Part shown: piece by piece, positions 3,806 to 26,219 of the stretch
How the letters are laid out: each line of letters begins with the position of its first letter
How positions within the stretch are numbered: the first letter of the stretch is position 1
Assembly (NCBI GenBank): GCA_012514175.1
Contig: JAAZAU010000012.1
Span: forward strand, 110,897 to 174,896
Reading direction: 5' to 3'
Length of the DNA stretch: 64,000 nucleotides
DNA from: Parcubacteria group bacterium
GTDB lineage: Bacteria; Patescibacteriota; Minisyncoccia; Phycocordibacterales; WO2-35-19
The notes under the pieces: generated by a model
Told to the model about the DNA's origin: nothing
Seen by the model: the letters and a program-made list of their open reading frames with translations, nothing else
Databases searched by the model: none
Program-made: the position numbers and the translations under genes

Positions 3806-4186
3806 ATGCGTATATTAGGAATTACAATACCAGACGACAAAAGACTTGAAATAGGACTTACCACTTTGTTTGGAATAGGTCGCTCAAGAGCTAAGAAAAT
3901 TTTGGATGAAGCTAAGGTAGATTGGGGCACTACCGCTAAGGATTTAAGCGAAGAAAAAGAAAACGAAATCAAAAAAATAATAGAAAGATTAAAGATTGAA
4001 GGGGACTTAAAAAGAGAAGTTTCTGGCAACATTAAAAGACTGAAAGATATAAAATGTTACAGAGGCATCCGACATATGCGTTCATTACCAACTAGAGGCC
4101 AAAGAACCAAAACCAACTCTCGCACACGCAGAGGTAACGTTAGAAAAACTATGGGCACTGGTCGCAGAGCTGTAGATAAGAAATAA
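3806..4186 (+). CDS. rpsM: 30S ribosomal protein S13
   Basis: 126 aa, MRILGITIPDDKRLEIGLTTLFGIGRSRAKKIL. Conserved operon position. Confidence 0.95.
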   Translation: MRILGITIPDDKRLEIGLTTLFGIGRSRAKKILDEAKVDWGTTAKDLSEEKENEIKKIIERLKIEGDLKREVSGNIKRLKDIKCYRGIRHMRSLPTRGQRTKTNSRTRRGNVRKTMGTGRRAVDKK

Positions 4187-4196
4187 AATAACTAAT

Positions 4197-4628
4197 ATGG
4201 GGAAAAAAAGAATTGTAAAAACAGAAGGAGAAACAGGAACTGAAGATGTAAAAAAAACAACCAAAGTTTCTAGCAAAAGAAAAGTTGAGACTGGCATACT
4301 TTATGTCAGATCTACTTTTAACAATACCGAGTTAGTGCTCACTGACAAGAAAGGCAACGTCTTAGCTAGCGAATCTAGCGGTAAACTTGGTTTTAAAGGA
4401 GCCAAAAAAGGCACTCCGTTTGCAGCCGCCAAAGTCGGTGAAGCCCTGGCTGTTAAAGCCCAAACTATCGGCATTAAAGAAGTTGGTGTAGTAGTAAAAG
4501 GTATTGGCTCTGGACGAGAATCCGGAATCAGAGGTTTTATTTCTAAAGGCGTTAATATTTCTTATATCAGGGACGCCACCCCGGTGCCTCACAACGGACC
4601 AAAACCTAGAAAACCAAGAAGAGTATAA
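4197..4628 (+). CDS. rpsK: 30S ribosomal protein S11
   Basis: 143 aa, GILYVRSTFNNTELVLTDKKGNVLASESSG ... PHNGPKPRKPRRV. Confidence 0.95.
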   Translation: MGKKRIVKTEGETGTEDVKKTTKVSSKRKVETGILYVRSTFNNTELVLTDKKGNVLASESSGKLGFKGAKKGTPFAAAKVGEALAVKAQTIGIKEVGVVVKGIGSGRESGIRGFISKGVNISYIRDATPVPHNGPKPRKPRRV

Positions 4629-4640
4629 AAAAATAAAATT

Positions 4641-5246
4641 ATGAAAATCGGACCAAAATACAAAATAGCAAGAAGATTAAAAACACCTATTTTTGAGAAA
4701 ACTCAAACTCAAAAATTTAGTTTGAGACAAGATCGTAAATCTTCAAGATCAAAATTTTTCAAACCAAAAACTGATTATGGTTTGCAAATGGACGAAAAGC
4801 AAAAAGCTAGGATGTTTTATTGTGTAGGCGAAAAACAATTCTCAAAATATGTCAGAGAAGCCTTGGCTAAAAAAACAGGTTCTCCAGCTTCCAATCTCCT
4901 TAGATCTCTTGAACAAAGATTGGACAACGTGATTTGGAGAGCGGGTCTTTTGCCAACACATTTAGCTGCGAGACAAGCTGTTGCTCATGGTCATTTTCTA
5001 GTTAACGGTAAAAAAACATACGTTCCATCTTTTTCAGTAAAAGAAGGTGACAAAATCACCATCCGTGAAGGAAGCAAGAACAGCAAACTTTGGAGCAATC
5101 TTGAAAACGGCAGAGAAGTTCAAGAACCTGATTGGATGTCTTGGGATAATAATAAAAAAGAACTCACCATAAAAGACGGTTCTTTTACTGAAACTGCAGA
5201 TTTGATGTTTGATCTTGGGCAAGTGATTGAATTTTATCAAAGATAA
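4641..5246 (+). CDS. rpsD: 30S ribosomal protein S4
   Basis: 201 aa, MKIGPKYKIARRL ... S4 domain LDNVIWRAGL. Confidence 0.95.
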   Translation: MKIGPKYKIARRLKTPIFEKTQTQKFSLRQDRKSSRSKFFKPKTDYGLQMDEKQKARMFYCVGEKQFSKYVREALAKKTGSPASNLLRSLEQRLDNVIWRAGLLPTHLAARQAVAHGHFLVNGKKTYVPSFSVKEGDKITIREGSKNSKLWSNLENGREVQEPDWMSWDNNKKELTIKDGSFTETADLMFDLGQVIEFYQR

Positions 5247-5291
5247 TATTTTATAAAAATTTTGTTAGATTTTTAGTTAACTTTTAATATT

Positions 5292-6275
5292 ATGAACGAC
5301 AATTTTGATAAAGTTATAGTTTTGCCTTCAAAACCAAAAGTGGTATTAGATGAAGGCAACAAGGGAATTTTTGAGATAGATGGATTCTATCCTGGATTCG
5401 GCTACACCGTAGGCAACAGCTTAAGACGCATTATCTTGTCTTCTTTGCCTGGCGCCGCCGTAACTTCAATGAAAATAAATGGTGTAGATCATGAGTTTTC
5501 TTCTATCAAAGGAGTAAAAGAAGACGTAGTGATGATAATGCTCAATCTCAAAAAACTCAGGATAAGAATGATTACAGACGAACCACAAACTCTTACTCTG
5601 AAAGCTAAAGGAGTTAAAGAAGTAACCGCAGGGGATATTGAAGTCCCTGGTCAAATAGAAATAATGAACCCAGAACTTTTAATTGCCACTTTAACTGATA
5701 AAGATTCGGAATTAGAAATGGAAATGACGGTAGAAAAAGGTTTAGGTTTTATTAGTCGCGATCTGTCTAACAGAAACAAGGTTGATATTGGCACCATAGT
5801 ATTAGACGCCAACTTCACCCCAATCAGAAGAGTTAGTTACGAAGTAGAAAATATGCGAGTCGGCGATCGCACTGACTTTAACCGACTTCGTATCTCCTTA
5901 GAAACCGATGGCAGTATCTCTCCTAAAGAATCACTTGAAAAATCTATCAACATTATGATAGAACAATTGAAGGCCATTACTGGTTTTGAGGATAAAGAAG
6001 AAATTGTAAATGAATCAGTTTCTGATAGCGAAACCGCCGAGGAAGAAAATGAGAGCAATGCCCAAAAAATGGATCCAGAATTTCTTAAAACCAGAATAGA
6101 AAATTTAGAGCTCTCAACTAGAACTATGAATGCTCTTTCTAGCGCCAACATTAGAACCATTGGTGGTTTAGCTAGAAAAAAAGAAAAAGACATTCTTGAA
6201 ATAGAAGGCTTGGGCGCTAAAGGAGTTGCTGAAATCAAAAGAGTTTTAGCTGAACACGGTATAACATTAAAGTAA
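5292..6275 (+). CDS. rpoA: DNA-directed RNA polymerase subunit alpha
   Basis: 327 aa. N-terminal dimerisation/assembly domain and C-terminal aCTD (LELSTRTMNALSSANIRTIGGL). Located between rpsD and rplQ. Confidence 0.95.
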   Translation: MNDNFDKVIVLPSKPKVVLDEGNKGIFEIDGFYPGFGYTVGNSLRRIILSSLPGAAVTSMKINGVDHEFSSIKGVKEDVVMIMLNLKKLRIRMITDEPQTLTLKAKGVKEVTAGDIEVPGQIEIMNPELLIATLTDKDSELEMEMTVEKGLGFISRDLSNRNKVDIGTIVLDANFTPIRRVSYEVENMRVGDRTDFNRLRISLETDGSISPKESLEKSINIMIEQLKAITGFEDKEEIVNESVSDSETAEEENESNAQKMDPEFLKTRIENLELSTRTMNALSSANIRTIGGLARKKEKDILEIEGLGAKGVAEIKRVLAEHGITLK

Positions 6276-18479: not shown

Positions 18480-20065
18480 ATATATTCGGAATAACAAGCT
18501 TGATGATATTCTTTGCAGGAATTGGCTTTGGTCTTTTTTTGTATTCATCTGACAGAACTTCAAAACTTAATAAATCTTGGTTTATAGTTTCAATTTTTAC
18601 AGCCTTATGGGGGTTATCACTTTTCGGGGTCACTTCCGCGGACACAGCAAACATTGCTATGAAATGGCAATGTTTGCTTGATGTGTCCGCTACTTTTATT
18701 CCAGTCACATATTTTTATTTCGTTTGTCAACTATTAAAAATAAAAAGAAAAGCCTGCAATAGATGTATTTTAATTTTGGGAATTGTAATAGCAATATTTT
18801 CCTTAACTCCTTATCACAAAACAGAAATTACTACAAGATATGGTTTTTTTTGGGTTGATCCGGGGGAATATTACTTCTTGTTTTCATTTTTCTTTGGAAT
18901 TGTAACTCTCACATCACTTTTCTTGTTAATACAAGGATACTTCAAAAACAGAAAAGAACCCCTGTTTAGAGCTCAAATAAGAAACACATTAATAGCGGGC
19001 ATAATAGGTTTTGGAGGAGGTATCACCAATTTCTTTCCACAACATATAGATATATACCCATATGGTAATTATTTTATTTTACTTTATGTGTTTTTCATGA
19101 GTTATGGAGTATTGAAATACAAATTACTAAACACAAAAATAATATCTGCTCAATTGTTAGCGGGAGCAATTGTTTTAATATTTTTATTTGATCTATTAAG
19201 ATTTAATTACAATTTATATGATTGGATTGTAAAATTTATATTATTTATACTTGTTTTGTTATTTAGTGTTTTCTTAATAAGAAGCGTATTTAAAGAAATA
19301 GAGCAACGTGAACATATAAAAAACCTCGCTAAAGATTTACAGGAAGCAAATGAAAAATTGAAAGAATTGGATCAAATGAAATCAGAATTTATGTCCTTAG
19401 CCACACACCAAATTAGAGCGCCACTGACCGCTATCCGAGGTTATTCTTCAATGCTTCTAGAAGGGGATTTTGGAGCTTTGCCAGCAAAGGCTGCCGATTC
19501 TATAGAAGTCATAACCAAATCCAGTCAAAACCTGATTGATATCGTGAACGATTTCCTCAACATTTCCAGAATAGAGCAAGGGAGAATGGTTTATGAAAAA
19601 AGTGTTTTTGATTTAGTGAAATTGGTAAAAGAAGTAGCGGATGAGTTGAGACCTAACATTAAAGACGCTGGGTTAGATTTGAAAATCAATATAATACCAA
19701 ACAATCTTTTTATGGAAGTGAACGGTGATAGAAACAAATTGAGACAAGTTTTCAGCAATCTTTTAGACAACGCCACCAAATACACACTGAAAGGTAGTAT
19801 TGAAATTTCTATTACAGAAGAAAATTCTAAAGCAAAGATAGAAGTAAAAGACACCGGTGTTGGCATAGACCCAGCAGAAACCGAAAAACTTTTCGGAAAA
19901 TTTAACAGAGCCAAGGACGCAAACAAAACCAATGTTATTGGCACTGGAATCGGTCTTTATCTTGCTAAAAAAATAGTGGAAGCTCACGATGGTCGTATCC
20001 AGGTTTTTTCAGAAGGTTTAGATCATGGCACCACTTTTACCATTGAATTACCTTTGGAAAAATAA
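18476..20065 (+). CDS. sensor histidine kinase with multi-TM N-terminal sensor domain (orphan, no adjacent response regulator)
   Basis: 529 aa with about 7 predicted TM helices, then a coiled coil, H-box HQIRAPLTAIRGY, N-box and G-boxes (GTGIGLYLAKKIVEAHDGRI). Confidence 0.9.
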   Translation: MNIFGITSLMIFFAGIGFGLFLYSSDRTSKLNKSWFIVSIFTALWGLSLFGVTSADTANIAMKWQCLLDVSATFIPVTYFYFVCQLLKIKRKACNRCILILGIVIAIFSLTPYHKTEITTRYGFFWVDPGEYYFLFSFFFGIVTLTSLFLLIQGYFKNRKEPLFRAQIRNTLIAGIIGFGGGITNFFPQHIDIYPYGNYFILLYVFFMSYGVLKYKLLNTKIISAQLLAGAIVLIFLFDLLRFNYNLYDWIVKFILFILVLLFSVFLIRSVFKEIEQREHIKNLAKDLQEANEKLKELDQMKSEFMSLATHQIRAPLTAIRGYSSMLLEGDFGALPAKAADSIEVITKSSQNLIDIVNDFLNISRIEQGRMVYEKSVFDLVKLVKEVADELRPNIKDAGLDLKINIIPNNLFMEVNGDRNKLRQVFSNLLDNATKYTLKGSIEISITEENSKAKIEVKDTGVGIDPAETEKLFGKFNRAKDANKTNVIGTGIGLYLAKKIVEAHDGRIQVFSEGLDHGTTFTIELPLEK

Positions 20066-20141: not shown

Positions 20142-21038
20142 TTGTATGATGCAACGTATATGCTAAAAAATAAATGTTTTGAATTTCTATCCTGTCCTAT
20201 AGATGGAAGCGACATGGTCTCTTTAGGAAAAAGTGTTTGTTGTGTAAATAAACACTCTTTTGACGTATCAAAAGAAGGATATATAAATATGCTAACGAGC
20301 GATAAACGCTTCAAACAGAAAATAGGTGACGTAAAAGATATGCTACTAGCAAGGTCTAATTTTCTACAAAGCGGATACTACAATTTTCTTTCAGAAGAAA
20401 TAAATAAAATAGCAATAAGATATTTACAAAATAATAACAATAAAGATGGCTGTATTTTAGAAGTAGGTTGTGGCACTGCTTTTTATCTAAAAAGATTAAA
20501 AGACAACATAGATAATGATTTAAAAAAAGAATTTTGCTATTTTGGGACTGATATATCAAAAGAAGCAATCAAAATCTCAGCAAAAAAATATAAAGACATA
20601 AATTTCATAGTTGCAGATACTTACTTTAAAATTCCTATAAAAAACAAAACTGTAAAAATTATTTTAAATATATTTTCTCCCAGAAATCCGGAAGAATTTT
20701 CAAGATTATTAGACGATAAAGGGATTATAATAACAGTGATTCCAAACGAAAATCATCTTAACGAACTTATAGAAAAATTCGGACTAGTAAAAGTCGAACA
20801 AGAAAAGAAAAAACATCTAATGGACGCTCTTGATGGTCAATTTGACAAAATAGAAGACTATAATTTTACGAAGAAAATTTCTTTAAAATCTAATTCTATC
20901 ATAGACTTAATTAAAATGGGACCAAGCTATAAATGTCTAAATGATAAAAAAATAATAAACATAAAAAATATGAACAAAAATTTATTAGAAGTAACTGCTT
21001 CTTTCAATATCTTAGTTTTTGTTTCAAAAAGCCGGTAA
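20142..21038 (+). CDS. RlmA-like 23S rRNA (guanine-N1) methyltransferase
   Basis: 298 aa. N-terminal Zn-ribbon CPIDGS...CCVNKHSFDVSKEGYINML matches the RlmA CPxC...HxFDxAKEGYVNLL pattern. Class I SAM motif LEVGCGTAFY. Confidence 0.75.
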   Translation: MYDATYMLKNKCFEFLSCPIDGSDMVSLGKSVCCVNKHSFDVSKEGYINMLTSDKRFKQKIGDVKDMLLARSNFLQSGYYNFLSEEINKIAIRYLQNNNNKDGCILEVGCGTAFYLKRLKDNIDNDLKKEFCYFGTDISKEAIKISAKKYKDINFIVADTYFKIPIKNKTVKIILNIFSPRNPEEFSRLLDDKGIIITVIPNENHLNELIEKFGLVKVEQEKKKHLMDALDGQFDKIEDYNFTKKISLKSNSIIDLIKMGPSYKCLNDKKIINIKNMNKNLLEVTASFNILVFVSKSR

Positions 21039-21060
21039 CCAATACAACTGGTTACCGGCT
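21030..21060 (+). terminator. bidirectional terminator between rlmA-like and DUF397 genes
   Basis: AGCCGGTAACC-AATACAACT-GGTTACCGGCT perfect 11-bp stem. Confidence 0.7.
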
Positions 21061-21078
21061 TGATAAGTAATGACTTTT

Positions 21079-21294
21079 CTAAGACATTTCAAATTCGTTG
21101 TCTTTGACACCTTTCGAAAATGCCTGCCATTCACCACGTGAAAAACACAAAACTGAACCTTCTGGATTCTTGGAATCCCGAACGAAGACCATCTCATCCT
21201 TGAAAGCCACCTCAACACACCGATTGTGTGTATATTGGGAATAGGATGACTTTCGGAAATTCAACCCTTCGATATTCTGCACATTCTTGCTCAT
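21079..21294 (-). CDS. DUF397 domain protein
   Basis: 71 aa: FRKSSYSQYTHNRCVEVAF...VFVRDSKNPEGSVLCFSRGEWQAFSKGVKDNEFE closely matches the actinomycete DUF397 consensus (WRKSSYS..NCVEVA..VRDSKDP.GP.L.F...EW.AF..GVK.GEFD). Confidence 0.8.
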   Translation of the reverse strand: MSKNVQNIEGLNFRKSSYSQYTHNRCVEVAFKDEMVFVRDSKNPEGSVLCFSRGEWQAFSKGVKDNEFEMS

Positions 21295-21297
21295 AAC

Positions 21298-22110
21298 TTA
21301 TCCCTCCTGAGAAACAATGTTGTGATATTGTTTCCAGATTTGTAAGTATTTTTGGTAAGACCCCACGTTCTGTTTTATAACAAAACGATTTATATTGTCT
21401 CTCTCATCTCCTTTCTCACTTTCTAAATCATTTATAAGTCTTAATACTTCATTTGGTTTTGGCCCAGAAAAATGAACCAGTCTTGCATTAGGATTGAAAC
21501 CCCACCAAGGTTTCCAGTCATATTCAGGTGATAAGTTATCCCATTTTTGAGAATAAAATGTATTCCACGCTCCTTGACTACAAGGACCATGTCCTGCAAA
21601 AGAAAAATCAAAATTGTGCGAAATCAGATGTTTAACAAATTTATCGTAATCCTCCCTTAATCTTTGAAGATTTAACACCATTACTCCAGTACTCACAAAT
21701 GTCCAATCCAACACATCCCAATCTGGTGGTGCAGAAAAGTATCTAGGTTTATGGTCAAATTCCAAATTGTTCATAACCATAATATCTGCATCAAGATATA
21801 TCGCGTACTCATCATCGATACTGTTTGCTTTGAAAGCATTAGCTGTTTCAATACACAAATAAGCTCCAGCACAATAATCGAAAGATTTATTACCTGTATA
21901 TGTCATTTCAATTTCTTCCAAAAACGGAACCTGCCATCTAATACAAGGTACCTTGCGATTATAGAGCCAAGACATAAAGCTAATATCCTGACCGTCATAC
22001 AAACAACATACATCAACATTAGAATTTAATTGTGCTGTTAATACCAAGACCTTAGCCATCTCGATATAAGTAGGATCTCTATCAGTTACCGTAAATACAC
22101 ATTTCATCAT
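21298..22110 (-). CDS. glycosyltransferase family 8 (LgtC/glycogenin-like)
   Basis: 270 aa with DxD motif (YLDADIMV) and the GT8 C-terminal HFSGPKP (I-HF-G-x-KPW-like) motif. Sits 4 bp upstream of the DUF397 gene on the same strand. Confidence 0.8.
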   Translation of the reverse strand: MMKCVFTVTDRDPTYIEMAKVLVLTAQLNSNVDVCCLYDGQDISFMSWLYNRKVPCIRWQVPFLEEIEMTYTGNKSFDYCAGAYLCIETANAFKANSIDDEYAIYLDADIMVMNNLEFDHKPRYFSAPPDWDVLDWTFVSTGVMVLNLQRLREDYDKFVKHLISHNFDFSFAGHGPCSQGAWNTFYSQKWDNLSPEYDWKPWWGFNPNARLVHFSGPKPNEVLRLINDLESEKGDERDNINRFVIKQNVGSYQKYLQIWKQYHNIVSQEG

Positions 22111-22213
22111 CTTCTTCTCCCAATATTTTTAAAATTGTAAAACAACAATTACATCCAATTTAGATTGGATTATATAAATCACAAATAGTCAAATACAGAA
22201 ATTACCATTTAGA

Positions 22214-22271
22214 TCACATTCGGAAATTTAGGTCATGGCACCACTTTTACCATTGAATTACCTTTGGAAAA
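22214..22271 (+). pseudogene. remnant copy of the histidine-kinase 3' end (direct repeat of 20005..20061)
   Basis: 39 nt (22233..22271) are identical to 20023..20061. Flanking bases are also similar. The fragment encodes ..GHGTTFTIELPLE.. in frame, like the kinase C-terminus (DHGTTFTIELPLEK*). Confidence 0.7.
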
Positions 22272-22299: not shown

Positions 22300-22328
22300 T
22301 TGACTTTAAGTGCTAAATTTGCTATAAT
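22300..22328 (+). promoter_or_regulatory. consensus sigma70-type promoter
   Basis: TTGACT - 17 nt - TATAAT. A short hairpin plus T-run follows at 22357..22384, then the DUF167/tyrS genes. Confidence 0.55.
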
Positions 22329-22420
22329 TAGGGGTAGTGCTTCTCATAGAAATCAAAAAAGAGCCTCATCAGCTCTTTTTTATTTAGGAAAATATTCAAA
22401 AAAATGCTATTTTATAAAAG

Positions 22421-23997: not shown

Positions 23998-24546
23998 TTA
24001 ATTTTTCTTTTTCCTAATTGAGATTTTGGCAGTTTTGGATTTGGTAAAAAATTCAATATCGGGATCTAACCAAACCTTATTACAAATTTCCAAAATCTCA
24101 TCCAAAGAAAGATTATCAAACAACAAAATCCAAGCGCACAACTTTTTGGCTTCGGACTTACTGTTTATGTTGGTCAAATTTATTACTTGTCTCAAACTTT
24201 TAGAGTTAAATAATTTGTTGCGTCTACTTTTTTGGTGAGACTCCAAAAGATTTAAGACAATTTGTCTGGCCATCAAAACAGCTTTGCCTTCACCAAATTT
24301 TTTCCAATACTTTTCCAATTTGAAGGCCACTTTTTCGTTAGGATACCTGTCAAAAAGCAGGTTCCAAGCTTGGTGATGTTCCGCTGAAACAAAAGATATA
24401 TTTCTGTCGGAATCATCACCTCCGTCTTCTCTTCGTTTGCGGTGGTGGATTGTATAACCAGTTGGTGCGCTTATTCCCACGCCTTTCCTCCTTGGTTGGT
24501 GTTTGTCTTTCCACAATATACCCCCATTTTTAAGAAAATCAAACAA
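23998..24546 (-). CDS. HNH endonuclease domain protein
   Basis: 182 aa. N-terminal YTIHHRKRREDGGDD..NISFVSAEHH fits the HNH/His-Me finger pattern (HH...GG...N...H). C-terminal ~100 aa has no recognised family. Confidence 0.6.
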   Translation of the reverse strand: MFDFLKNGGILWKDKHQPRRKGVGISAPTGYTIHHRKRREDGGDDSDRNISFVSAEHHQAWNLLFDRYPNEKVAFKLEKYWKKFGEGKAVLMARQIVLNLLESHQKSRRNKLFNSKSLRQVINLTNINSKSEAKKLCAWILLFDNLSLDEILEICNKVWLDPDIEFFTKSKTAKISIRKKKN

Positions 24547-24569: not shown

Positions 24570-26219
24570 ATGACCCAAAAAGAAGCCTTGGACATCCTAA
24601 AAACTGGAAGAAACGTGTTTTTAACTGGCGCCGCAGGTTCCGGCAAAACTCACGTTTTACGCGAATATATTGCTTATTTAAAAGACTTAGACGCTAATAT
24701 CGGCATCACTGCCTCAACAGGCATCGCGGCGACTCATATGGGCGGAACTACCATACATTCGTGGAGCGGTATTGGTATCAGAGATTCTCTTTCTAAAAGT
24801 GAAATCAAAGAAATCGCCGAAAAAAGACAGGTCAGAAAAACCGTGCAAGACGCTTCAGTTTTAATCATAGACGAGATTTCTATGTTACATCATTTTAGAC
24901 TAGACCTTATAGATTCTGTAATCAGGGAAGTTAAAAATTGTAACGAATCTTTTGGTGGTATGCAGGTAGTTTTTTGTGGTGATTTTTTTCAATTACCACC
25001 AGTCAGAAAAGCGGGCGGACCAGAAACTTTATTTGCTTATCATTCTGAAACTTGGAAAAATCTTAATCTTAAAATTTGTTATCTTTCCGAACAACACCGT
25101 CAAAACGATTTGGATTATTTAAAAATATTAAATGCGGTTAGAGAATCTTCGGTGTCTGAGGAAATTATAGAAACCTTAAAAACCAGATTCCATCAAAACA
25201 TCCCAACAGAACCAACCAAACTTTATTCTCATAATCGCGATGTTAATTCTGAAAATGAAAACGAACTGAATAAAATACCAGGTAAAACTTTTGAATATGA
25301 AATGCGTGAGATGGGACGCCAAAGCATCATAAAATCTTTGAAAAAAAGTTGCTTGGCGCCGGAAACTCTAAAACTAAAAGTGGGCGCTAAGGTGATGTTT
25401 GTAAAAAATAATTTTGAACAAGGTTATGTTAATGGCACCTTGGGCACTGTTATAAAATGTGGTTATGAAGAGATAACAGTTCAAACATTTTCTGGCAAAA
25501 CTATTGATGTTGAGAGAGAAACTTGGGTGATAGAAGAAGATGGCAAAATCAAAGCGGAAATAAACCAGTATCCTTTGCGATTAGCCTGGGCTATTACCGT
25601 TCATAAAAGCCAGGGTATGTCTCTAGATTCGGCTCTGATAGATTTATCACGTTCTTTTGAAAGAGGAATGGGTTATGTGGCGCTTTCCCGGGTGCGTTCT
25701 TTAGAAGGACTTTTTTTGAAAGGATTTAACTATATGGCATTGCAGATCAATGAAGAAGTTCTTGAACAAGACAAAAAATTTAAAGAATATTCTAAAACCA
25801 ATTCTTTCCACATAAGAACAATGGGGGAGAAAAAACTTTCCCAAATGCATCAAGAATTTGCTAAAAAAATAAAGGGGGTTCGCTCCGCTAAAGCAACACG
25901 AAATAAAGAAAAAACTACTGTGGAACAAACTAAAGATTTGCTTGATGAAGGCAAAGGTCTAAAAGAAATTGCTAAAATTAGAGGCCTGAAACTCGGCACG
26001 ATTTTGGATCATATAGAACAAATAAAAAAACAAGATAACAACTACAATATTTACAATCTCCGAAACAGCATCACGAAAAATAAATTCAAAGAAATTTATA
26101 ACGCTTTTCGCAAAAATGGCATAAGTGAAGGTGGTGTTTACCATTTAGCGCCAGTCAAAAACCTTCTCGGTCCAAAATATTCTTATGACGATTTGCGATT
26201 AGTGCGATTGTTTTTGTAA
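24570..26219 (+). CDS. Pif1/RecD-family ATP-dependent DNA helicase with C-terminal HTH-like extension
   Basis: 549 aa with Walker A GAAGSGKTH, DEISML, QLPPV and VHKSQGMSLD motifs typical of Pif1-like SF1B helicases. Confidence 0.85.
   Translation: MTQKEALDILKTGRNVFLTGAAGSGKTHVLREYIAYLKDLDANIGITASTGIAATHMGGTTIHSWSGIGIRDSLSKSEIKEIAEKRQVRKTVQDASVLIIDEISMLHHFRLDLIDSVIREVKNCNESFGGMQVVFCGDFFQLPPVRKAGGPETLFAYHSETWKNLNLKICYLSEQHRQNDLDYLKILNAVRESSVSEEIIETLKTRFHQNIPTEPTKLYSHNRDVNSENENELNKIPGKTFEYEMREMGRQSIIKSLKKSCLAPETLKLKVGAKVMFVKNNFEQGYVNGTLGTVIKCGYEEITVQTFSGKTIDVERETWVIEEDGKIKAEINQYPLRLAWAITVHKSQGMSLDSALIDLSRSFERGMGYVALSRVRSLEGLFLKGFNYMALQINEEVLEQDKKFKEYSKTNSFHIRTMGEKKLSQMHQEFAKKIKGVRSAKATRNKEKTTVEQTKDLLDEGKGLKEIAKIRGLKLGTILDHIEQIKKQDNNYNIYNLRNSITKNKFKEIYNAFRKNGISEGGVYHLAPVKNLLGPKYSYDDLRLVRLFL

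Follow-up and report, generated by a model that had tools for sequence, protein, structure and literature searches.

A rare but conserved two-gene module pairs a DUF397 protein with a predicted glycogenin-like glycosyltransferase in several bacterial lineages

The window analysed here, a 64-kb stretch of DNA from a Parcubacteria genome, carries a two-gene unit in which the gene for a predicted GT8-type glycosyltransferase (GT) is followed directly by the gene for a small DUF397 (BldB-like) protein. Comparison of related loci identifies this GT-DUF397 pair as a rare but conserved two-gene module of several bacterial lineages, which is probably mobile between them. DUF397 and GT8 are both known domain families; the conserved partnership between them is previously undescribed and lies outside the known range of DUF397. 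The DUF397/BldB family has been stated as not found outside Actinobacteria (PMC10294661, PMC7159879), and neither a link between DUF397 and a glycosyltransferase neighbour nor a link between DUF397 and CPR bacteria was found in the literature searched. As a tentative explanation, to which we assign a probability of roughly 0.45, we propose that the DUF397 protein binds the GT as its dedicated partner and either gates or targets this cytoplasmic, presumably retaining enzyme.

Results

Operon structure of the GT-DUF397 pair

The window has a GC content of about 36% and is full of housekeeping genes, including those for aminoacyl-tRNA synthetases, Hsp70/DnaJ/GrpE, ribosomal proteins, MurJ and FtsW. 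Table 1 presents the features of the GT-DUF397 locus and its immediate surroundings. Inspection of the junction between the two genes reveals a spacer of 3 nt (TAA-GTT-ATG) that leaves both ORFs in the same frame, with the AGGAGGG motif situated 7-8 nt 5' of the DUF397 ATG. The combination of so short a spacer with a Shine-Dalgarno sequence inside the GT gene indicates translational coupling of DUF397 to GT. Promoter and terminator scans placed nothing between the two genes, and the hairpin that follows DUF397 (dG -25.2 kcal/mol, z = -5.85) overlaps the rlmA stop codon. Given the lack of any signal between the genes and the strong hairpin after the second, co-transcription is the natural reading, and GT and DUF397 almost certainly constitute a two-gene operon.

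Table 1. Coordinates of the GT-DUF397 pair and neighbouring features in the 64-kb window
Feature	Position	Strand	Remarks
45-nt direct repeat, copy 1	20017..20061	(+)	last 15 sense codons of histidine-kinase gene
RlmA-type 23S rRNA G745/G748 methyltransferase gene (rlmA)	20142..21038	(+)	convergent with the pair
Intrinsic terminator 3' of DUF397	21025..21061	(-)	15-bp stem, 3-nt loop, U-run
DUF397 (BldB-like) small protein gene	21294..21079	(-)	71 aa
AGGAGGG, Shine-Dalgarno for DUF397	21302..21308	(-)	within last GT codons
GT-like ORF	22110..21298	(-)	270 aa; glycogenin-like GT8-fold glycosyltransferase gene (predicted)
GT start	22110-22105	(-)	tandem ATG ATG
GGGAGAAG, Shine-Dalgarno-like	22114..22121	(-)	5' of GT start
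45-nt direct repeat, copy 2	22227..22271	(+)	non-coding remnant in GT-yggU intergenic region

A DUF397 protein with a distinctive aromatic loop

The product of the downstream gene matches PF04149 with 68.1 bits (E 7.5e-19, cutoff 24) across profile positions 2-55 of 55. Kaur et al. 2020 (PMC7159879) describe two hallmarks of the domain, a CxE motif in strand 2 and, where strand 3 ends, an RDS motif. These correspond to C26-V-E28 and R39-D-S41 of the window protein; Bacteroidota-type members carry CVQ instead of CVE. The window protein further contains the subfamily loop S19-Q-Y21-T-H-N24, which forms part of a signature, S-Q-Y-x-[W/H]-N-x-C-V-[E/Q]-V, present in GT-linked DUF397s and lacking in named actinobacterial ones. 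This SQYx[W/H]N loop is aromatic, in contrast to the Gly-rich or polar equivalent of Streptomyces BldB and other actinobacterial DUF397s. Residues S19, Q20 and Y21 are invariant across GT-linked DUF397s, and the Tyr is absent from the actinobacterial DUF397s in the comparison set; an S-x-Y motif is also seen in low-GC DUF397s without a GT link. In the structural model, the loop is of lower confidence (pLDDT about 77-82).

A database entry with the same 71 residues carries the name 'DUF397 domain-containing protein [Parcubacteria group bacterium]', and this sequence recurs on many metagenomic contigs, some as long as 442 kb. The protein also has a PHROG family match (phrog_10815, E 3e-21). Within the 64-kb window, no second DUF397 or GT paralogue was detected. 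The neighbours of DUF397 are GT and rlmA, and no XRE/DUF5753 gene was found in the window; likewise, no XRE-type HTH was detected in a six-frame translation of the 64-kb window, where the HMM used for the search was a rough one, derived from three classical XRE domains.

A divergent glycosyltransferase of the GT8 type

The upstream gene product scores below threshold against the Pfam profile for GT8 (PF01501, Glyco_transf_8; 18.3 bits, cutoff 24.3), with a match confined to residues 141-217 in the C-terminal third, and it has no NCBIfam match. The AF2 model of the protein is of high confidence (pLDDT 92.1, pTM 0.91), and its best Foldseek matches are glycogenin-2 (E 5e-11), glycogenin-1, the GT8 protein 3tzt, UGGT, GlyE and LgtC, where the top matches range from E 5e-11 to 1e-9 and from 0.55 to 0.66 in TM. 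Among PDB sequences, a profile of the GT family matches best to glycogenin-2, to Gat1, which is the Skp1 galactosyltransferase, and to glycogenin-1. The DxD metal site is represented by D107-A-D109 and is invariant across the family alignment. Three further elements are kept in all pairs, namely an N-terminal D-x-x-Y, the QGAWN motif (S178-Q179-G-A-W-N in the window GT) and HF[SA]GP[KM]P (H213-F-S-G-P-K-P in the window GT). Judged by its predicted fold and active-site motifs, the protein is a GT8-type glycosyltransferase, presumably a retaining one, and it is divergent in sequence.

Comparison with glycogenin (GYG1/2), Gat1 and the CAZy GT8 enzymes LgtC and GlyE reveals a common GT-A fold, DxD site, Q-G-x-x-N motif and C-terminal H-x-x-G-x-K-P motif. 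In contrast, identity to these enzymes is only ~17-20%, and the window GT possesses a C-terminal three-helix extension (residues ~219-269). The residue preceding the invariant Gln is Asp in Bacteroidota-type GTs and Ser in CPR-type GTs; its counterpart is the Asp of the glycogenin DQG (Asp162). With Ser in place of this Asp, the catalytic competence of the CPR-type GT is assumed rather than certain. In the HMMER alignment with glycogenin-2, which is weak in this region, the invariant Y-D-W-K-P of the GT falls opposite the YTY-SP loop and would put an invariant Trp at the position of the self-glucosylated acceptor Tyr of glycogenin. Neither a signal peptide nor a TM segment is evident in the GT sequence. 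The features described here point to a soluble GT-A-fold enzyme whose metal and nucleotide-sugar site is intact and which is probably cytoplasmic and active.

A profile search run exhaustively against 1.84 billion representative proteins returned 377 GT relatives at E 1e-30 or better. The motif Y197-D-W-K-P-W-W-G of the window GT occurs in only 2 of the first 40 representatives checked, and the YDWKPWWG and QGAWN signatures together mark what is, by sequence, a previously unnamed GT8-like subfamily. Among the 149 additional representatives retrieved for the wider family of the GT, none was a GT-DUF397 fusion.

These results uphold most of what a preliminary description of the locus had said of the two genes. 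The motifs it quoted for the 71-aa ORF are all present and the ORF is a true DUF397; its co-transcription with a GT8-type gene is consistent with the operon structure presented above; and its view that the partner is non-canonical, a GT instead of XRE/DUF5753, agrees with the rough XRE check of the window. Two details require adjustment. DUF397 does adjoin the GT gene, but at 3 nt and not at 4, and the GT8 label holds for the fold, the DxD site and HFSGPKP but not for the Pfam score.

Conservation of the pair across genomes

Among GT homologues of at least 35% identity with a readable neighbourhood, all but one have a same-strand DUF397 ORF directly downstream. The paired loci (L009-L017 and L020-L030) include Hainich groundwater contigs (L009-11 and L024), a Paceibacterota MAG (L020-22), a Mucilaginibacter MAG (L023) and further loci (L012-15, L025 and L026; L016; L017; L027-L030), and in L017 and L012 the DUF397 ORF had been missed by gene callers. 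The exception, P0039 (L018/19), shares 48% GT identity and is without a DUF397 neighbour, which indicates that the enzyme can exist alone. P0045 (28% GT identity, 69% GC) and the GT homologue of E. coli plasmid pEC81-2 (34.6% identity) are also without an adjoining DUF397, and both fall outside the DUF397-linked subfamily. The pair was found in at least 12 distinct genome contexts, comprising Paceibacterota, the Mucilaginibacter MAG and unassigned contigs, and it persists down to 35% GT identity with intergenic distances that lie between a 17-nt overlap and +80 nt. Only GT and DUF397 are common to all 12 contexts. A third conserved module gene was sought across these contexts and none was found, rlmA being limited to the Paceibacterota clade.

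The association is likewise seen when the search begins with the small protein. With a profile of GT-linked DUF397s, ~29 clusters were retrieved that carry the pattern S-Q-Y-x-x-N-x-C-V; a GT lies immediately upstream in both signature DUF397s that were looked up (P0064 and P0071), and in neither of two low-GC non-signature DUF397s (P0087, from a Catillopecten gill symbiont, and P0079). The two proteins co-diverge, with pairwise identities correlated at r = 0.61 (Mantel p = 0.0004). Pairwise identities span 46-95% for DUF397 versus 35-87% for GT, and conservation is thus higher in the small protein than in the enzyme. Peptides of the GT signature were matched in 2 of 185,579 GTDB species representatives. 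The SQY-signature DUF397s do not form one clade in a crude UPGMA of a 58-column alignment, which is too short to root the family.

Composition, synteny and the flanking direct repeat

The GC content of the pair (36.2%) equals the window mean (36.2%), which suggests that the pair is not recent in the window genome; composition offers no evidence of a recent import. At other loci the pair departs from its flanks, with 51% vs 40% in L016, 41.5% vs 62%/48% in L033 and 48% vs 55-57% in L035. Deviant pair GC in several hosts, together with the spread over Paceibacterota and Mucilaginibacter, suggests that the unit is mobile from one genome to another. For the window DUF397, the nearest relatives come from short metagenomic contigs, at 60-67% identity, and many of them are GT-linked; the best named actinobacterial DUF397s among the closest matches reach ~47-50% identity.

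The locus is bracketed by two copies of a 45-nt direct repeat, which are identical at 44/45 positions and contain an exact 30-nt core with 0 expected matches in shuffles. Copy 2 lies 117 nt upstream of the GT start, and the 2.2-kb segment bounded by the two copies holds rlmA as well as the GT-DUF397 pair. The repeat is also present in sister strains whose loci cover both positions. The order rlmA-DUF397-GT is kept in four other Paceibacterota-type loci, and in L016 the HAD-HisK block is located on the other side. Given that the repeat encloses rlmA along with the pair and that the three genes are syntenic in relatives, the repeat records a local three-gene translocation beside HisK. It does not mark the entry of the GT-DUF397 pair, and rlmA, whose synteny with the pair is confined to the Paceibacterota clade, stands outside the universal module.

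Discussion

Relation to known DUF397 systems

The nearest points of comparison for the window DUF397 are the BldB proteins of Streptomyces, encoded in WhiJ(XRE-DUF5753)-BldB-AbaA loci. Both have the PF04149 domain with its CxE and RDS motifs, and the topology of the family, four beta-strands and then a terminal alpha-helix, may be shared as well. Both are also small, stand-alone proteins encoded directly downstream of a gene with whose product they probably work. In contrast, the window host belongs to the Parcubacteria (CPR) and other members of the group reside in Bacteroidota-like genomes; the partner is a GT8-like enzyme and not an XRE/DUF5753 transcription factor; and a single copy is present in the 64-kb window, as compared with a median of 19 bldB paralogues in actinobacterial genomes. 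From the side of the enzyme, the regular pairing with a DUF397 gene sets the window GT type apart; in the literature searched, such a pairing was not found for any GT8.

A second point of comparison is the predicted Xre-DUF397 type II toxin-antitoxin system (Makarova et al. 2009), which is likewise a two-gene mobile cassette with DUF397. The window pair has no HTH partner, and both its gene order and the nature of the partner differ. Whether the actinobacterial pairs are toxin-antitoxin systems has itself been contested experimentally.

A proposed role for DUF397 as a dedicated partner

The reading that we prefer, albeit at somewhat less than even odds, has the DUF397 protein serving the GT as a dedicated partner. 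DUF397 would be made in step with the GT through translational coupling and would then bind the GT, a putative interaction that we infer from the conserved pairing. The bound DUF397 protein may gate the activity of the GT or steer the enzyme to its acceptor, and the aromatic SQYxWN loop would be the likely specificity determinant and a candidate contact for the GT. BldB offers a partial analogy: it lacks DNA-binding activity, forms hetero-oligomers with its paralogues and also occurs fused to WhiJ (PMC10294661). Streptomyces BldB-like DUF397s may moreover act together with WhiJ, the regulator whose gene adjoins theirs. Direct BldB-WhiJ binding is itself undemonstrated, and the analogy therefore rests on incomplete knowledge.

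Several observations were weighed in arriving at this assignment. We counted in its favour that the pairing is seen both from the GT side and from the DUF397 side, that only these two genes are common to all contexts, that the two proteins co-diverge with DUF397 the better conserved, and that the GT looks active. Counted against it were the lack of a fusion among the representatives of the wider family, the DUF397-free P0039, the Ser that CPR-type GTs have before the invariant Gln and the failure of the signature group to form a clean clade.

Alternative explanations

A different role for the small protein would be that of a protein acceptor of the GT, in effect a 'split glycogenin' in which the enzyme O-glycosylates Ser or Tyr of DUF397 (candidates S19 and Y21), so that glycosylation would either switch DUF397 function or prime a glycan. 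The closest solved relatives of the GT (glycogenin-1/-2, Gat1, GlyE and UGGT) act on proteins or protein-linked glycans, and the Trp at the position of the glycogenin acceptor Tyr suggests that the GT needs an acceptor in trans. The invariance of S19, Q20 and Y21 in a lower-confidence loop, and the absence of the Tyr from the actinobacterial set, are counted in its favour as well. However, the argument is drawn purely from distant homologues at ~17-20% identity, with a weak alignment in the acceptor loop, and an LgtC-type GT8, which acts on lipo-oligosaccharide, scores nearly as well. The occurrence of S-x-Y in low-GC DUF397s that are not GT-linked does not fit such a function, and a stoichiometric acceptor is not obviously expected to out-conserve its enzyme over the whole length of the protein. 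We consider it unlikely that DUF397 is the acceptor. The pair might instead be a conflict module akin to a toxin-antitoxin system, in which either the GT or DUF397 is harmful and the other protein neutralises it. A compact, tightly coupled unit that is patchy across phyla, differs from host flanks in GC in several genomes and sits among hypothetical genes in some copies would suit this reading, as would the PHROG match of DUF397 and its prediction as the toxin of Xre-DUF397 pairs and as a co-effector of conflict systems (PMC2701414, PMC7159879). On the other side, experiments on Streptomyces XRE-DUF397 pairs reportedly argue against toxin-antitoxin behaviour (PMC6262351, PMC10364602). Neither GT nor DUF397 has a PADLOC match or a recognisable DNA-binding antitoxin domain, no phage homologue of the GT was found, and plasmids yielded no copy of the pair, all DUF397 matches on them being actinobacterial. 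In the clade of the window, furthermore, the pair keeps a stable place beside rlmA in a housekeeping neighbourhood and has native GC. A conflict module is accordingly judged improbable.

The remaining alternative concerns origin and not function, and stems from the preliminary description, which had placed the pair in a repeat-flanked insert and suggested horizontal acquisition of this actinomycete-type gene. In its strict form, DUF397 would have been acquired recently from an actinomycete and would stand beside an unrelated GT by chance. The family is overwhelmingly actinobacterial in named databases (PMC10294661), and the direct repeat that brackets the segment is real. This repeat nevertheless encloses rlmA too, a gene that accompanies the pair in syntenic loci of relatives, and it is not the vehicle of the pair. 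A recent import from an actinomycete is not supported in view of the recurrence of the pair in 12 contexts, its native GC and the metagenomic affinity of the nearest DUF397s, which exceeds the similarity to the best named actinobacterial ones among the closest matches. Co-divergence of GT and DUF397 is equally at odds with a chance juxtaposition, and we regard such an origin as scarcely credible. The same description had raised the matter of whether such pairs are common in reduced genomes; they do recur in related Paceibacterota and beyond, which in substance is the outcome it had named as counting against its view, but the GTDB count marks them as rare.

Significance

For decades BldB has ranked among the classic developmental genes of Streptomyces, and its biochemical function is still sought. 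A non-actinobacterial DUF397 subfamily that is tied to one enzyme of known fold offers a simpler system in which to study how DUF397 acts. The very small genome of the host, with no DUF397 paralogue in the window, eases the asking of whether DUF397 binds, inhibits or targets the enzyme, or accepts sugar from it. In a more speculative scheme, which we hold to be rather doubtful, DUF397 would be O-glycosylated on the SQY loop or would be an obligate specificity subunit, the module would have been swapped between CPR and Bacteroidota, and the XRE-linked form of Actinobacteria would represent a derived use of one and the same partner-binding fold. If this scheme were true, the pair would represent a bacterial 'split glycogenin' or a protein-glycosylation switch, and the module may reveal the biochemical role of the BldB/DUF397 fold. 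For the GT subfamily, the only conserved genomic partner is a protein of some 70 residues, which points to protein-directed glycosylation in CPR bacteria.

A direct repeat brackets the rlmA-DUF397-GT block

Inspection of the sequence around the glycogenin-like GT8-fold glycosyltransferase gene (GT) and the BldB-like small protein gene DUF397 reveals a direct repeat whose two copies enclose a 2.2-kb block comprising the pair and the convergent rlmA-like 23S rRNA methyltransferase gene. The first copy forms the final 15 codons of a histidine-kinase gene, and the second, upstream of GT, is a remnant with no coding role. The same repeat is found in sister strains L001-L003. This arrangement suggests that the block reached the 3' end of the kinase gene by insertion or translocation.

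The GC content of rlmA is only 26.6%, versus 36.2% for the window, and falls below that of every neighboring gene despite conserved synteny with the pair.

Features in the window and at comparison loci
Feature	Sequence	Coordinates	Strand	Remark
Direct repeat, 45 nt	Window	20017-20061 and 22227-22271		44/45 positions identical
rlmA	Window	20142-21038	+	
Sigma-70-like promoter and hairpin	Window	22300-22382	+	Near-consensus TTGACT-17-TATAAT, extended TG
ORF, 182 aa	Window	23998-24546	-	
PIF1/RecD-like helicase with HTH_40 tail	Window	24570-26219	+	PADLOC RecD_like, E 5e-24
Hypothetical protein, 376 aa	L040, E. coli IncY plasmid pEC81-2 (NZ_CP088132.1)	4935-6065		
GT of pair, called at only 220 aa	L020/L022, Paceibacterota MAG (JBBDJY010000013.1)	5001-5663		
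DUF397 protein	L037, Catillopecten margaritatus gill symbiont (CP138327.1)	4001-4216		
DUF397 protein	L038, non-actinobacterial genome	4001-4219		

Elements neighboring the block

Approximately 25 nt downstream of the promoter, and immediately before yggU(DUF167)-tyrS, lies a hairpin with a T-run. This element, possibly an attenuator or a tiny sRNA, folds weakly (z = -1.86) and has no match in Rfam. Further along, the 182-aa ORF adjoins the helicase gene in divergent orientation, returns zero matches in Pfam, PADLOC and PHROG, and is absent or shorter in sister strains L003 and L004.

Relatives of GT and DUF397 elsewhere

The pEC81-2 protein shares 34.6% identity with the window GT and belongs, as a remote relative, to its unnamed GT8-like family, here carried on a conjugative plasmid. 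Its gene lies near a nucleotide-sugar dehydrogenase, in surroundings rich in IS elements, and DUF397 is not among its neighbors. The alignment of the Paceibacterota GT begins at approximately residue 70 of the family, such that the N-terminal nucleotide-binding strands are missing. The start may have been mis-called, or the enzyme may be decaying while its DUF397 stays intact.

Among DUF397 genes lacking a GT, one, in a symbiont, adjoins a DUF6722 gene, and another lies near a reverse transcriptase. GT is absent from both L037 and L038, each from a non-actinobacterial genome. The range of DUF397 is clearly wider than Actinobacteria, and DUF397 has additional partners beyond GT.
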